Source: a virus
Lineage: Duplodnaviria > Heunggongvirae > Uroviricota > Caudoviricetes
Direction: 5' to 3' (one strand)
IMG/VR virus record: IMGVR_UViG_2869930542_000005
DNA length: 7,666 nucleotides
Positions within the stretch are counted from its first letter, which is position 1. Every line of letters starts with the position of its first letter. The position numbers are program-made. Positions 1 to 6,000 of the stretch are shown piece after piece.

Positions 1-3000
1 TTAGTAGAGCATGTGTTTTTCAATAAACGTCCCGATGACTTTTTCGTGGATCTCTACTGAACGCGAGAAGCAGATTGTTTTACGAGCCAAGCGCTTAATG
101 CGGGTGCGCAGCGTCAGATTATTGCGCTCAATCCGTTGGGTGAATATTTTTCCGGTCAGATGCTTATCCTTCGGCACCTCCCGGCCATAGCTGCCCCAGT
201 CGTCGCTGGTGATCATGCCGATGTTGAATGGCGTAAGCAGTGCCAGTAGTTCCCGGCAGGTTTCATCGGTACGGGGACCAAAAGTGTAGGCCAGTACCCC
301 CCTGTTTTGGTGTTATACGCGTACCAGAGCCAGTGTTGCCGGGCTTTACTGCCAACGAAACTCCATTGCTCATCAAGTTCGCAGATAAGCGCCACATCAG
401 CATGAGCAACGGGCGAAGACGTTATTCGCTTTGGCGTGAGTTTTTTAAAGTCCGGATGACGGTGTTAATGCCAATTTTCAGTGTCCTGGCGGTATCGCGA
501 ACCCCAGCGCCATTGAAGGCCATTTCAGTGATCAGCTCTTTAATGCCCGGCTTACGGGCCTCATAAGTGTAAGTGAGCTGAAAAACGCGGTGGCAGTCAC
601 GGCAGCGAAATCTGTCATGGCCTTTAGGGTTCTGACCATGGCGGTAGACCTGTGCAGACTGACAACGAGGACAATGAATGTTAACGCTGGCCATGAAAGA
701 ACCTCAAAAGCCCGCATTATACATCAGATTCAACTAATTAGAGGCATCACCAGACCGACAAAAGCATACCCTCCTGGTTTAATACCATGAGATAATTTTT
801 TTGATTTACGGCATGAAATGATGTCTCCATTTTCAGTTACTTTATATATACCCTCAAAACCGGGGATATCTTTTTCTTTTACATCACCCATCCTCTTCCT
901 CCGCGCGCTTCTTTGCGTAAGTTAGCCATTAAGCAGCCTCCCCTGTTACTTTCAGCATTCCGTTATAGAGCAGCTTTCTGGTCAGCCACTGTTGGCCACG
1001 CCCGGTGATTTTTGTGGTGAACGATATCTGTATTCCGTGATTTGTGTTGACTGCTGTTTCTTTCACTGTGAAATAGCCGCGATCCATATATTCCTGCATT
1101 GGCACATTGCGCCGGGAACCTGAAGCAATAAGGATTTTGTGATCGCGCATCCACGCAAACAGTTTGTTTGGACCAATTCCAACAACCTTTGCAAAGTTTC
1201 CAATCAAAATTCCGCTGGCCTCGCTAACGCGATCGGCAAACTCAACTTTAGGTGCTGCGAGAGCAAGCTGTTTCTCCAGTTCAGCCTTCTGGTCTTCAAG
1301 GTCGGCCGCAAGGCGCAATGCCTCAGAAAAGGTTTGTGGGATTTTCGCGGTTGCCCCTTCAAGCTCTCGCCAACGGTCAACAAGACGAGCGGTGAATTCC
1401 GGCGACAACTGGGCAACGACAATAATGCTGTCGCGCTTACCTTGTTCGCCTTCGAAGACGTAATGCTCGTACTGAACATTGAACCCTAAGTTATTGATTC
1501 TTTCGGAAACCTCAAATTGAGGATGCCGGATAACACCATTTTTAGCCAGCGTTTCGATGGTACGTTTCACATTGTCATGACGCTTACCCACCAACTCAGC
1601 GATTTCAATGCTGGTCATTTTGATGGCGTTGCTATTTATCAGCTCGTTCATTGTCATGTCCTCTCATATTGAAAATTCAGCAATAAAAAACCCAGCCGAA
1701 GCTGGGTCGTTGCGTTGGCAATCTGTCAGTAGTGATGTAGTGAAGGAGGTAATTCTTTGTTCTTAAGTCTTACCCATGCAGAAAGATTCGTTGGTCCGTC
1801 TGGCTCATTAATATCAACATCTCGTGTGTGATTGATTAAAACGTCTCTCGCCATTCCGATAACATACGAGAACTCATGACCGTAGTCGTGGCATCTGCCG
1901 GAATAGTTAGACTGAATTTGTCTTAGCGCCGGATACAGTTCGCGGAATAATGCCTGTGAGCGGTTGGCATAATCCCACAACCATACCAGACTGTTTGCAT
2001 CTTTTGCAGAAAGCTCGCTGGTTTTCTTCTCGTGATGACCTGCGCTTTTCGAAGTCTGGCTGAAATAGCAGTCTTCCAGTTTTTCGAACACGTCCCACGC
2101 CTGATCGGTTTCGAGCATTTTGGCGTGGCGTGCGGCTCCGCGTTCTGTCCAGAGGATGAGGGAGCGGGCATTTTTACCAACTAACCCGATTGTTTCGGGT
2201 CTGTTCTTAAACTCGCGTAATTCGTTTTTTTCAATTTTAAAGTAATGCTTTCCTACCACGAATCGCATCGTGTTGTTCAGAAAATTATCAGAAATGTTTT
2301 TGATTTTTGTTCCGTATAACTGCGCCAGAAGTTCAGTTGTAATAACGCGGATCTGGTTGTGGGTGATTGCAGGAAGAGTGTCGACAGAAATTTGAGTGAG
2401 CATAACGATAACTCCGTACATTTGGTCATTATCGCCACCTTCTGGTCTCAATAATCTGGTGGCGAGCTGTGCAGGGTTGAGACTACCGGGTACGGAAACC
2501 GGCGAGCCTTTCGGCTCCCCCACACAGCCCACCATAAATCGCGAATGTGACTGTGCAAACGATATAAAAAAGACGCGGGCGCGTCTCATATCGCTCCGTA
2601 AACATCCGGGGTCTCAATCCCGACGCCAGATTTTGCTGGCGTATGAGGAATATAGCCCCGGATATGTGTTGTCGTCAACTACAGGCCTTGAATGCATATA
2701 ACGATTTTGTTATGTTGATACCTATGAACTACACTATCGAATACTACAGTGAAGATGTAAGGCTGGAAGTCGATCGGCTTCCATTGAGTATGCGTGCCCG
2801 ATACCAACATCTCGTTGAACGTATGAAGATATATGGCAGCAATCTCGGAGAACCTCACACCAGCGCCTTTGGTGACGGACTTTTCGAACTCAGAATTAAA
2901 GGCAACGATGGGATCGCGCGTGTTTTTTACTGCACTCTGACAGGGAAACGCATCATCATGCTGCATAGTTTTGTAAAGAAAACGCAGAAAACACCGCCAG

Positions 3001-6000
3001 CCGAACGCAAGAAAGCTGAAACCAGAATGAAGGAGGTTAAGCATGACTGGTAAACGCACTCTCCCCACCATGACACACGACGAAATGGCAGCCAAATGGA
3101 TGGAAGACCCGGCTTTTAAAGCAGAATACGACGCTATCGCTGACGAATTCGCACTGCTTGATGAAATGCTGGCAGCACGCAAAGAAGCTGGCTTAACTCA
3201 GGCTGAAGTTGCCGAGCGAATGGGAACAAAAGCGACCGCGATCACCAGAATGGAAAGTAATCTCGCATCAGGTATCAGCGGCCCATCATTTGCCACCCTA
3301 AAAAAATTCGCCCGCGCTACTGGAAAAAAACTCCAGATCCGCTTCGTTTAACCACACCGCGCCGTCATTCTGGCGGCGCACCGGATAAATAGCCATTTCC
3401 TCGCACGATGTCTTAGCCACCGGATATCCCACAGGTGAGCCGTGTAGTTGAAGGTTTTTACGTCAGATTCTTTTGGGATTGGCTTGCGTTTATTTCTGGA
3501 GCGTTTCGTTGGAAGGTATTTGCAGTTTTCGCGGATGATGTCGGTGAAACTTCGTCGCTGTCGCCTCATTCATACCTCCTGTCGGTAAATCTGACACCCT
3601 GACCAATAGCCCAGGCTGTTGTGTACTCGATCAGACTTGCCATGCGCTTCACGCTCATCTGCGCGCTGCTTTCGCGAATGTTGACGCATTCTCCTTCAAG
3701 GCCGGGCAAAACATCAGCTTCCTGTTTTGTTGCCACTGCATGACCGCTGATCAACAAAACCTTCCATTGTTCTGGTTTTAACCATTTGCCGCACCATTGA
3801 ACCTGACGAGCGATATCCGCCAGCATCGCGTGAAATTTTGCGTTCTGGTCAAGATTTCGCTTGTAGTCAGTAATGCGGATGGTGACTGGCTTGTCTTTAT
3901 CGAGAGGAGTTGAGAGGATGGCATTTATTGCGGCTTGCTGTTGTTGCTTAGTTCGGAGGAAGATTGTTTGCTTCATCGAAAATTCTTCTCTTTAATTCCA
4001 GCGGCTCTGATAGCTTTCATTACTGCAATTACCGTTTTGTCTCTCCCATCCTCATAACTGAGGTGTACTGGCAATAGCGGACACTACCATTTGTTCTTTT
4101 TTTAAGCACAGCCATCTGATGATATTTTTCCCTGAAGGCTGCCGGGGAGATATTCCCCAGACGAGAGTGACGACGCTGACGATTGTAGAAAATCTCAATG
4201 TATTCCCGTATTACTGAGATGGCTTCATCCCGGTTATTAAAACGATAGTGGCTCAGGCTCTCATTTTTCAGCGTTCCCCAGAAGCTTTCCATCGGAGCGT
4301 TGTCGTAACAGTTACCTTTACGCGACATTGATGTTTTCAGACCAAACTGCTCCTGTATGACCCGGTAATCGTATGCGCAGTACTGTGAACCTCGATCAGA
4401 GTGGTGGATTAGCCCGGCAGGTGGGCGCTGGCTCCTGAGCGCCATAAACAGGGCTTTACCTGTCAGCTCTTTTGTCATGCGCTCTCCCATGGCGTAGCCG
4501 ACAATTTCGCACGTATAAACATCTTTGATGCCAGCGAGGTACAACCATCCCTCCTGTGTGGCAACATACGTCAGGTCCGCCACCCAGACCTGATTTGGTG
4601 CTGTAGGAGCGAACGTCTGGTTCAGCAGATTTGGCGCAACTGGCAGATTGTGGTTCGAGTTCGTAGTCGCTCTGAACTTGCGTTTCTGCTTACAGCGTAG
4701 CCTTAGCTCCTTACGAAGACTGAGGTAGCCTGAGTTTAACGGACACTCCTTCCTGAAATAGAATGGCATCAGAAGGAGCTAATAATGAGCAGAAAAACCC
4801 AACGTTACTCTAAAGAGTTCAAAGCCGAAGCTGTCAGAATGGTTCTTGAAAATCAACTTTCGATCAGTGAAGGCGCTTCCCGATTATCCCTTCCTGAAGG
4901 CACTTTAGGACAATGGGTTACCGCCGCCAGAAAAGGGCTCGGTACTCCTGGTTCCCGCACGGTGGCTGAACTGGAATCTGAAATTCTGCAACTGCGTAAG
5001 GCGTTAAATGAAGCTCGCCTTGAGCGAGATATATTAAAAAAAGCAACAGCGTATTTTGCACAGGAGTCGCTGAAAAATACGCGTTAATCGAACAATGGCG
5101 ACAACAATTTCCCATTGAAGCGATGTGTCAGGTATTTGGTGTATCCAGGAGCGGTTATTACAACTGGGTACAGCATAAACCCTCAGACAGAAAACAAAGT
5201 GATGAGCGACTAAAACTGGAGATTAAGGTGGCACATATCCGCACTCGCGAAACATATGGAACCCGGCGGCTCCAGACGGAGCTGGCAGAGAATGGCATCA
5301 TCGTTGGTCGTGACCGACTGGCACGTCTGAGGTGTACTGGCAATAGCGGACACTACCATTTGTTCTTTTTTTAAGCACAGCCATCTGATGATATTTTTCC
5401 CTGAAGGCTGCCGGGGAGATATTCCCCAGACGAGAGTGACGACGCTGACGATTGTAGAAAATCTCAATGTATTCCCGTATTACTGAGATGGCTTCATCCC
5501 GGTTATTAAAACGATAGTGGCTCAGGCTCTCATTTTTCAGCGTTCCCCAGAAGCTTTCCATCGGAGCGTTGTCGTAACAGTTACCTTTGCGCGACATTGA
5601 TGTTTTCAGACCAAACTGCTCCTGTATGACCCGGTAATCGTATGCGCAGTACTGTGAACCTCGATCAGAGTGGTGGATTAGCCCGGCAGGTGGGCGCTGG
5701 CTCCTGAGCGCCATAAACAGGGCTTTACCTGTCAGCTCTTTTGTCATGCGCTCTCCCATGGCGTAGCCGACAATTTCGCACGTATAAACATCTTTGATGC
5801 CAGCGAGGTACAACCATCCCTCCTGTGTGGCAACATACGTCAGGTCCGCCACCCAGACCTGATTTGGTGCTGTAGGAGCGAACGTCTGGTTCAGCAGATT
5901 TGGCGCAACTGGCAGATTGTGGTTCGAGTTCGTAGTCGCTCTGAACTTGCGTTTCTGCTTACAGCGTAGCCTTAGCTCCTTACGAAGACGTGCCAGTCGG

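Follow-up and report, generated by a model that had tools for sequence, protein, structure and literature searches.

A probable Gp49-type toxin-antitoxin cassette in a lambdoid prophage remnant of Shigella dysenteriae

Type II toxin-antitoxin (TA) modules in which a Gp49 toxin is encoded ahead of an antitoxin of the XRE helix-turn-helix (XRE-HTH) type make up the Tad-Ata family, first validated on pAMI2, phage N15 (gp49) and SXT (PMC2701414) and later handled as Gp49-type HigBA (PMC5906591). Here we describe such a gene pair in IMG/VR virus record IMGVR_UViG_2869930542_000005 (Caudoviricetes), a stretch of 7,666 nucleotides that is called the window below and supplies all coordinates given without another record. 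Segment 2661-3379 is probably a self-contained type II TA operon composed of a Gp49 gene and an XRE-HTH gene, which is carried as an accessory element by a Shigella dysenteriae prophage remnant and would be regulated by the mechanism proposed below.

Tad-Ata modules reside on mobile elements including a temperate coliphage, and replicon stabilisation has been shown for them (Dziewit et al. 2007, via PMC2701414 and PMC5906591). Our pair is likened by description to this founding set (pAMI2, N15 gp49/gp48, SXT), in which COG4679/DUF891 genes precede XRE-HTH genes. N15 is a linear plasmid prophage for which a stabilising role is obvious, whereas the cassette of the window belongs to an integrated lambdoid prophage. 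Validated Gp49 toxins share low identity, about 20% (PMC5906591).

Among known structures, Streptococcus pneumoniae HigBA (6AF3/6AF4; PMC7984235) is the best Protein Data Bank (PDB) sequence match for both proteins and the best fold match for the toxin. Both systems are encoded toxin first, have a long C-terminal helix in the toxin and possess an XRE-HTH antitoxin, which in the pneumococcus binds promoter palindromes (PMC7984235). On the other hand, the sequences share no more than about 20% identity, the pneumococcal toxin has a longer N-terminal part, its D61 aligns with G50 here, and its promoter carries four palindromes of a sequence different from that in the window. Moreover, the pneumococcal system is chromosomal in a Gram-positive host, whereas our pair is phage-borne. 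Mycobacterium tuberculosis HigB1 (Rv1955, the toxin of a toxin-antitoxin-chaperone, TAC, system; 7NBU/7AWK) also has a Gp49-like RelE fold (template modelling score, TM, about 0.75; 25-26% identity), and on the ribosome it cleaves A-site mRNA after the second codon nucleotide (PMC9098466). Its system is tripartite, with an antitoxin that needs a SecB-like chaperone, whereas no third gene is present here. Its codon preference (CCA) is not transferable here by homology.

A TA operon inside a lambdoid prophage is also known from CP-933P of Escherichia coli O157:H7 (paaR2-paaA2-parE2; PMC8630535). The first gene of that addictive locus, paaR2, has a leaderless mRNA according to 5' RACE and N-terminal sequencing, and the authors of that study emphasise how few genes of E. 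coli are known to be leaderless (PMC8630535). The families concerned (ParE toxin, PaaA2 antitoxin, CI-like PaaR2) are unrelated to ours, and there the leaderless gene is the regulator, whereas here it is predicted to be the toxin gene.

Judged by their sequences, the two proteins of the window are best assigned to this known Tad-Ata or "reverse-order HigBA" (Gp49-type HigBA) family. A preliminary description of the window had regarded the pairing as uncharacterised. At the family level this does not stand (PMC2701414, PMC5906591, PMC7984235, PMC9098466), but for the enterobacterial pair itself no paper was found, by protein accession or otherwise, and a literature search on "nin region" together with toxin-antitoxin returned nothing on it, one unrelated paper aside. 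The gene call as such adds little: the toxin is already annotated publicly ("type II toxin-antitoxin system RelE/ParE family toxin", "prophage protein gp49") and structures of the family are solved. The pair is thus an ordinary member of a known, widespread and annotated family, to which the conserved architecture of a putatively leaderless toxin gene with its operator and the isrK-adjacent slot, both described below, add modest value.

The toxin and antitoxin genes

The features of the cassette are as follows.

2661-3379, plus strand: conserved cassette core, a block recurring across lambdoid phage contexts with unrelated flanks
2688-2693, plus strand: predicted -35 hexamer TTGAAT of the cassette promoter; TTG is invariant in an alignment of seven sequences
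2698-2713, no strand: candidate operator palindrome ATAACGATTTTGTTAT with core TAAC-N6-GTTA, spanning the promoter spacer and the -10 hexamer
2711-2716, plus strand: predicted -10 hexamer TATGTT, 17 bp from the -35 hexamer and 7 nt from ATG 2724
2724-3053, plus strand: toxin gene, 109 amino acids, Gp49-like RelE fold (Tad/HigB-type); ATG 2724, TAA 3051-3053
3031-3036, plus strand: Shine-Dalgarno sequence AGGAGG of the antitoxin gene, within the toxin open reading frame (ORF), 6 nt before ATG 3043
3043-3351, plus strand: antitoxin gene, 102 amino acids with an N-terminal helical segment, an XRE-type HTH and a short C-terminal tail; ATG 3043, TAA 3349-3351
3359-3379, plus strand: G+C-rich, terminator-like hairpin at the cassette end, 9-bp stem, -16.6 kcal/mol, z=-3.15

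Profile searches agree with the family assignments of the preliminary description. The toxin matches Pfam Gp49/PF05973 (COG4679, DUF891) with 90.5 bits, the gathering score being 23.9 (E=7.4e-26, residues 16-103 of 109), and the antitoxin is recognized as XRE-HTH by Pfam HTH_3 (E=3.4e-11). The toxin is also matched end to end by phrog_2523 (residues 1-109 on 1-108 of 108). In the PDB, its best sequence match is 6af3_A, S. pneumoniae HigB (E=1.5e-5), and the antitoxin matches 6af3_B, the HigA partner chain of the same crystal complex (E=1e-3). With canonical HigBA (Rts1, E. coli K-12) the pair shares the reverse gene order, a RelE-superfamily mRNA interferase and an XRE-HTH antitoxin. Our toxin was nevertheless not filed under Rts1-type HigB, because no canonical HigB Pfam family matched it: PF05973 was its sole Pfam family at E<=0.01. 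Its match to NCBIfam TIGR02683 is far under the cut-off (21.2 vs 62.85 bits).

An AlphaFold (AF2) model of the toxin, built from 49 homologues, reached a predicted local distance difference test (pLDDT) of 94.1 and a predicted TM score (pTM) of 0.87. It contains strands at residues 4-7, 46-50, 53-60, 63-72 and 76-85 and a helix at 92-108, and so models the protein as a RelE-superfamily fold with a long C-terminal helix. Top Foldseek matches of the model are 6af4 and 6af3 (S. pneumoniae HigB, TM 0.72-0.76) followed by 7nbu_Y and 7awk (M. tuberculosis HigB1); Vibrio cholerae HigB2 (5jaa_D, TM 0.59) appears at rank 11, behind two canonical RelE structures.

In S. pneumoniae HigB, R68, R73, F90 and K92 are implicated by mutagenesis and E66 is conserved (PMC7984235). 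In M. tuberculosis HigB1, K95A abolishes toxicity, and R68, R77 and K95 have been equated with R68, R73 and K92 of the pneumococcal toxin (PMC9098466). HMMER aligns E66, R68, F90 and K92 with E55, R57, F83 and K85 of our toxin, the last being also the counterpart of catalytic K95, while R73 corresponds to R66 only after manual shift of a 2-residue gap. All five residues are invariant in the 49-sequence toxin alignment. The full catalytic set of the characterised relatives is thus kept.

In PADLOC, toxin residues 49-99 also align partially with the NsnC model, at its C-terminal end (E=8e-10). This hints that the NsnC defence-candidate protein may carry an embedded RelE-like domain.

The ratio of nonsynonymous to synonymous substitution rates (dN/dS) relative to five diverged copies ranges from 0.04 to 0.27 in the toxin gene and from 0.02 to 0.10 in the antitoxin gene. 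Both ORFs are real genes under purifying selection. This bears on an alternative view, in which the pair is no more than a functionless remnant decaying along with a dead prophage, or a chance occurrence of two ORFs. The prophage is indeed wrecked: its NUMOD4 gene is truncated by IS1, two IS3-family copies separate ninB from the integrase gene and ninE has lost its stop codon. The pair itself presents another picture: its dN/dS stays well under 1, neither ORF is truncated and both are covered by profile models from end to end, and the predicted promoter, operator, Shine-Dalgarno sequence and hairpin are all intact. Between the window and E. coli RMDEC465, the antitoxin is unchanged and a single amino acid distinguishes the toxins. 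Contigs with exactly this toxin sequence number 281, and those with exactly this antitoxin sequence at least 1,000. We regard decay or chance as highly improbable.

Promoter, operator and translational coupling

Scanning of one genome per species yielded at least 584 stretches encoding relatives of the toxin, mostly in Beta- and Gammaproteobacteria and with 57-70% identity. Architecture was counted in the best 80 loci (n=72 for features upstream of the toxin, n=79 for the antitoxin start). The antitoxin homologue follows the toxin homologue directly in 79 of the 80. Its start overlaps the toxin ORF by 4-20 nt in 75/79 loci and is preceded by a Shine-Dalgarno-like motif in 78/79. Such a motif precedes the toxin start in only 2/72 loci. 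Upstream of the toxin, TAAC-N6-GTTA is present in 58/72 loci, in 53 of which its end lies 10-11 nt ahead of the start codon, and a TAnnnT hexamer, scored singly, ends 6-7 nt before the start in 55/72. The complete arrangement TTGnnn-(16-18)-TAnnnT-(5-8)-start was found in 52/72 loci as compared with 0.3% of 14,395 random positions in the same loci, which is far beyond chance.

The window follows the same plan. The preliminary description had pointed to a candidate promoter giving a nearly leaderless toxin transcript, and the predicted hexamers with their 7-nt distance to ATG 2724 have the geometry shared by those 52 loci. No Shine-Dalgarno sequence precedes this ATG, and the presumed 5' end of the mRNA (2717-2760, 44 nt) is essentially unstructured (-2 kcal/mol). 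Taken together, promoter and operator geometry and the missing Shine-Dalgarno sequence across about 70 species imply that the toxin mRNA is probably leaderless or has a leader of 1-2 nt. In the literature, such leaderless toxin/operator architecture was not found reported for Gp49-type systems.

An in-frame, open start at ATG 2712 (113 amino acids) was considered and rejected: in STEC299 a stop codon lies between both ATGs, the start in the PHROG family fits 2724, and the family-wide promoter geometry fits 2724 and not 2712. In public records, essentially the same toxin gene is annotated with lengths of 76, 83, 87, 109, 121, 129 and 149 amino acids, because start-codon calls are inconsistent for a gene devoid of a Shine-Dalgarno sequence.

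Palindrome ATAACGATTTTGTTAT is the sole match to such a site in the window, and the antitoxin would be expected to bind its TAAC-N6-GTTA core as operator.

Tight translational coupling, which was also proposed previously, is supported by the 11-bp overlap of the two ORFs (3043-3053) and by the position of AGGAGG inside the toxin gene. The block AGAATGAAGGAGGTTAA-CATGACTGGTAAACG, comprising ribosome-binding site and overlap, is the same in all seven diverged copies except for one base, G or A, at the hyphen, while third-codon positions around the block vary among the seven sequences. In the lineage of PhiR5_2, antitoxin residues ~16-24 co-vary with the toxin: AAKWMEDPAF is replaced by VEKMLSNPAV alongside a diverged N-terminal half of the toxin. 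The N-terminal segment of the antitoxin may thus be the region that determines specificity of toxin binding.

From these elements the following mechanism is proposed. A sigma-70 promoter (TTGAAT, 17 bp, TATGTT) would start transcription at the A of ATG 2724 or 1-2 nt from it. The resulting leaderless mRNA would be translated inefficiently into toxin, while AGGAGG would direct efficient translation of the antitoxin, coupled to that of the toxin. Weak leaderless translation of one product and strong coupled translation of the other could ensure an excess of antitoxin even though the toxin gene comes first. An antitoxin dimer sitting on TAAC-N6-GTTA, over the spacer and -10 hexamer, would repress the operon, and its N-terminal segment would hold the toxin. 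Should the supply of antitoxin fail, free toxin would enter the ribosomal A site and cleave mRNA, with translation arrest as the outcome. Relatives provide the basis for these steps, namely A-site cleavage (PMC9098466) and antitoxin dimers that bind promoter palindromes and keep the toxin off its target (PMC7984235). The likeliest biological consequence is retention of the carrier DNA (addiction); phage exclusion is possible.

Several points weigh against this interpretation. For this particular pair, we infer toxicity, neutralisation, DNA binding and transcript start from sequence. Not all Gp49 proteins are toxic, as exemplified by HigB2 and HigB3 of M. tuberculosis (PMC9098466). Reports differ on ribosome dependence: a Gp49 toxin of Synechocystis is said to act independently of ribosomes (PMC4963859), and cleavage of RNA in vitro is reported for S. 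pneumoniae HigB (PMC7984235). The cassette promoter escaped a generic promoter scan of 2400-3700, because its hexamers agree with consensus in only 8 of 12 positions. In PhiR5_2 (~3117-3119) and E. coli S1-CAM-02-A, the lineage of about 80% identity, ATA stands in place of the codon at 2724, in a toxin ORF that is otherwise intact and conserved. Such a start is not accounted for by a model of strictly leaderless translation; an in-frame ATG lies 12 nt upstream of the ATA, within the predicted -10 hexamer. The terminal hairpin is kept in all contexts, but TTT or TTC follows it elsewhere and ACCGG in the window, where it is thus devoid of a U-tract; a generic terminator scan did not call it. The monomer model of the antitoxin is poor (pLDDT 63) and was not used for fold comparison. 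Finally, no defence-system model in PADLOC-DB v2 claims the pair, the toxin having the partial NsnC match and the antitoxin generic HTH matches.

Distribution of the cassette

The core 2661-3379 was found in at least four flanking contexts. Its copies are listed with their nucleotide identity to the window and their surroundings.

E. coli FDAARGOS_943, RMDEC465 and VL40: 99.7-99.9%; in RMDEC465, which was examined, adjoining ninE
Shigella phages POCJ13 and 75/02 Stx and seven E. coli genomes: about 92%; in POCJ13, which was examined, between hypothetical genes
E. coli STEC299 and A34, both examined (others 86-87%): about 86%; between a Rha/"ash" gene and a DUF4222 gene
PhiR5_2 and S1-CAM-02-A, both examined (twelve E. 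coli genomes at such identity): about 80%; adjoining an antirepressor gene

Among 5,426 complete E. coli genomes, the cassette was detected in only 31, in each case on the chromosome, and the ninE regions of lambda, P22, HK633, Sf101 and many phages encoding Shiga toxin (Stx) are devoid of it. Since it occurs in several flanking contexts and in so few genomes, the suggestion that it is an inserted moron is supported: the cassette occurs variably between conserved genes and carries its own predicted promoter and a hairpin. The junction between cassette and ninE as it exists in the window has no exact match in species-representative genomes.

One argument previously used for insertion has to be abandoned. 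The 3' end of the cassette was said to overlap a rewritten 3' end of ninE. The overlap exists (4 nt between antitoxin and ninE ORFs, 3348-3351), but the end of ninE is not rewritten. Relative to RMDEC465, the window has C for T at 3393, which turns the stop codon TGA (codon 59) into TGG and adds 15 codons, so that NinE has 73 instead of 58 amino acids and its ORF runs into the antitoxin stop. The overlap is hence due to a single-base loss of a stop. In RMDEC465 a near-identical cassette lies 41 bp from a normal ninE of 58 codons, and homology of ninE to cassette-less phages begins at 3394-3397, at the lost stop codon. The exact 73-amino-acid NinE is listed only under S. dysenteriae names in the protein collection. 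A seemingly "rewritten" ninE is thus to be read with caution, as a one-base stop loss in a decaying S. dysenteriae prophage.

That temperate phages carry the cassette as a moron, oriented against the lytic genes, also fits the view that it serves mainly in abortive infection or exclusion of phages: an invader shuts off transcription or translation of the host, the unstable antitoxin is lost, and translation is stopped by the toxin before the invading phage can finish its cycle. Other TA-like genes (ParD-like, HTH) in the corresponding slot of Stx2a phages and the weak partial PADLOC match of the C-terminal half of the toxin to NsnC point in the same direction, and a leaderless toxin gene and a Shine-Dalgarno-dependent antitoxin gene would presumably respond differently to perturbed initiation. 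Yet no full PADLOC defence-system model was matched, nothing was found in the literature on defence by this pair, and members of the family occur widely on the chromosomes of free-living Beta- and Gammaproteobacteria (taken together whether or not they lie in prophages). We therefore rate exclusion as main function as rather unlikely, and retain an addiction-type TA operon as the preferred interpretation.

The isrK/C4 flank and the prophage remnant

Scanning of the left flank with Rfam revealed that the cassette adjoins small RNA genes, a neighbourhood absent from the preliminary description.

2455-2539, minus strand: C4 antisense RNA, 75.9 bits vs gathering score 45
2566-2642, minus strand: isrK Hfq-binding RNA, 70.6 bits vs gathering score 50
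2603-2655, minus strand: c4-a1b1 target element

The generic promoter scan of 2400-3700 returned a sole promoter, located on the minus strand, with -35 TTGACG (2678-2673), an 18-bp spacer and -10 TATATT (2654-2649). Its predicted start, about 2642, coincides with the 5' end of isrK. The promoters of isrK and of the cassette are thus predicted to stand back-to-back, with 9 bp between their -35 hexamers, and the locus is better described as a divergent promoter region common to the cassette and to an isrK/C4 RNA-antirepressor module. A tRNA-like element had also been considered at 2608-2650 (hairpins with compensatory changes), but ARAGORN detected no tRNA and Rfam assigns this segment to isrK and c4-a1b1.

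This region is an antirepressor switch of the isrK-orf45-anrP type known from Gifsy-1 (PMC4825925). A 287-amino-acid orf45-anrP fusion in S. dysenteriae was noted in the S8 legend of that study (PMC4825925), and ORF 1726-2589 of the window is this very fusion. The first 60-odd codons of the ORF overlie the structured RNAs. Similarly, in E. coli A34 (NZ_CP028741.1) three tandem isrK-C4 units (2259-3188) are situated inside a 1,038-nt coding sequence annotated as "ash family protein", and in STEC299 a "Rha family" coding sequence likewise spans isrK/C4. The annotated N-terminal regions of these "ash" and "Rha" coding sequences may be translated RNA genes.

isrK and C4 lie divergently beside the cassette in five of six contexts, POCJ13 being the exception. 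Such proximity raises the alternative that the HTH protein is a phage regulator of the isrK-C4-antirepressor switch (secondary immunity), with Gp49 as co-regulator and not a toxin. The closeness of the two -35 elements is in line with it, as is the palindrome, whose centre is about 63 bp upstream of the isrK start. However, spacing between the promoters varies by 3 bp across lineages, which counts against a contact dependent on helix face. The POCJ13 cassette has no adjoining isrK/C4 and, conversely, Gifsy-1 carries antQ and no TA cassette upstream of its isrK (PMC4825925). The catalytic residues of the toxin are invariant. In addition, the unit of operator, promoter, toxin and antitoxin recurs in about 70 species, while isrK has been seen as its neighbour only in enterobacterial phage contexts (the distant loci were compared without an RNA-family scan), so that the unit is likely to be independent of isrK. 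Regulation of the isrK promoter by the antitoxin was accordingly ranked low, and the regulator alternative as a whole appears quite improbable beside that of an autonomous TA operon.

The predicted isrK promoter has its -35 hexamer overlapped by a near-palindrome, GTTGTCGTCAAC, at 2669-2680, the left part of which is conserved in POCJ13 and PhiR5_2; a regulator of the isrK-antirepressor switch could have its site there.

In Stx2a phage VT2phi_272 (NC_028656.1), the slot beside isrK/C4 is occupied by a ParD-like gene, a small ORF, a 73-bp antitoxin relic and another HTH gene. The relic (2001-2072 of that record) corresponds to the 3' end of the antitoxin gene, with 87.7% identity, a 1-nt deletion and no hairpin; in other Stx2a records the relic is 89% identical to this end. 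Of 214 matching records in our blast tally, 87 were Stx2a-, 37 Stx1a- and 15 Stx2-converting, and in every Stx2a record among the matches listed only the 73-bp relic was matched. TA-like genes together with an antitoxin relic in the Stx2a slot suggest that TA-type cassettes are exchanged at the position divergent from isrK/C4.

A wider proposal may be put forward, although we consider it doubtful. Throughout the subfamily, in hundreds of species, a leaderless toxin gene and an antitoxin gene with a strong internal Shine-Dalgarno sequence would set the toxin:antitoxin ratio, which could be flipped at translation initiation; enterobacterial phage cassettes would, in addition, stand back-to-back with the isrK-antirepressor switch in a slot of TA exchange. 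If this were true, conditions that spare initiation by 70S ribosomes at a 5'-AUG but not Shine-Dalgarno initiation, such as phage takeover, imbalance of initiation factors and some antibiotics or stresses, would tip the balance to toxin with no protease step. Apart from this proposal, the architecture itself offers a rule that can be tested across the subfamily, in which a leaderless toxin gene is combined with an overlapping antitoxin gene led by a Shine-Dalgarno sequence and the -10 hexamer is covered by a TAAC-N6-GTTA operator. Such a rule would account for antitoxin excess in toxin-first operons and would add a conserved leaderless gene family in Proteobacteria, where few are documented (PMC8630535).

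The layout of the whole window was derived from a six-frame ORF list and Pfam scans.

~1-720: IS1, with insA at 422-694 on the minus strand
730-891, minus strand: NUMOD4 gene fragment, homing-endonuclease-like, truncated by IS1
929-1657, minus strand: Rha/KilAC antirepressor gene
1726-2589, minus strand: ORF6N/P22AR antirepressor ORF, 287 amino acids
2724-3351, plus strand: toxin and antitoxin gene pair
3348-3569, minus strand: ninE
3566-3976, minus strand: ninB
4058-6597: two abutting IS3-family copies, separating ninB from the integrase gene
6611-7666, plus strand: lambda-type integrase gene, with arm-binding domain

The gene pair accordingly lies, as noted before, on the strand opposite to its phage neighbours: NUMOD4, both antirepressor genes, ninE and ninB are all encoded on the minus strand. 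By exact protein look-up, the 287-amino-acid antirepressor is ABB62488.1 of S. dysenteriae Sd197, and this protein and the 73-amino-acid NinE are S. dysenteriae proteins of Sd197 and WRSd3. The window is a heavily decayed lambdoid prophage remnant of S. dysenteriae, riddled with insertion sequences. Since no immunity or replication genes are found between the integrase gene with its adjacent IS3-family copies and ninB, and since the NUMOD4 gene is truncated by IS1, the prophage must have been heavily deleted or rearranged.

In the IS3-family copy at 4058-5328, a 612-bp part containing orfA (4717-5328) is inverted relative to its orfB part, which reflects either an unusual rearrangement or an assembly problem. 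The other copy, at 5327-6597, is intact, with orfA (6227-6529) and orfB (5298-6191) both on the minus strand.

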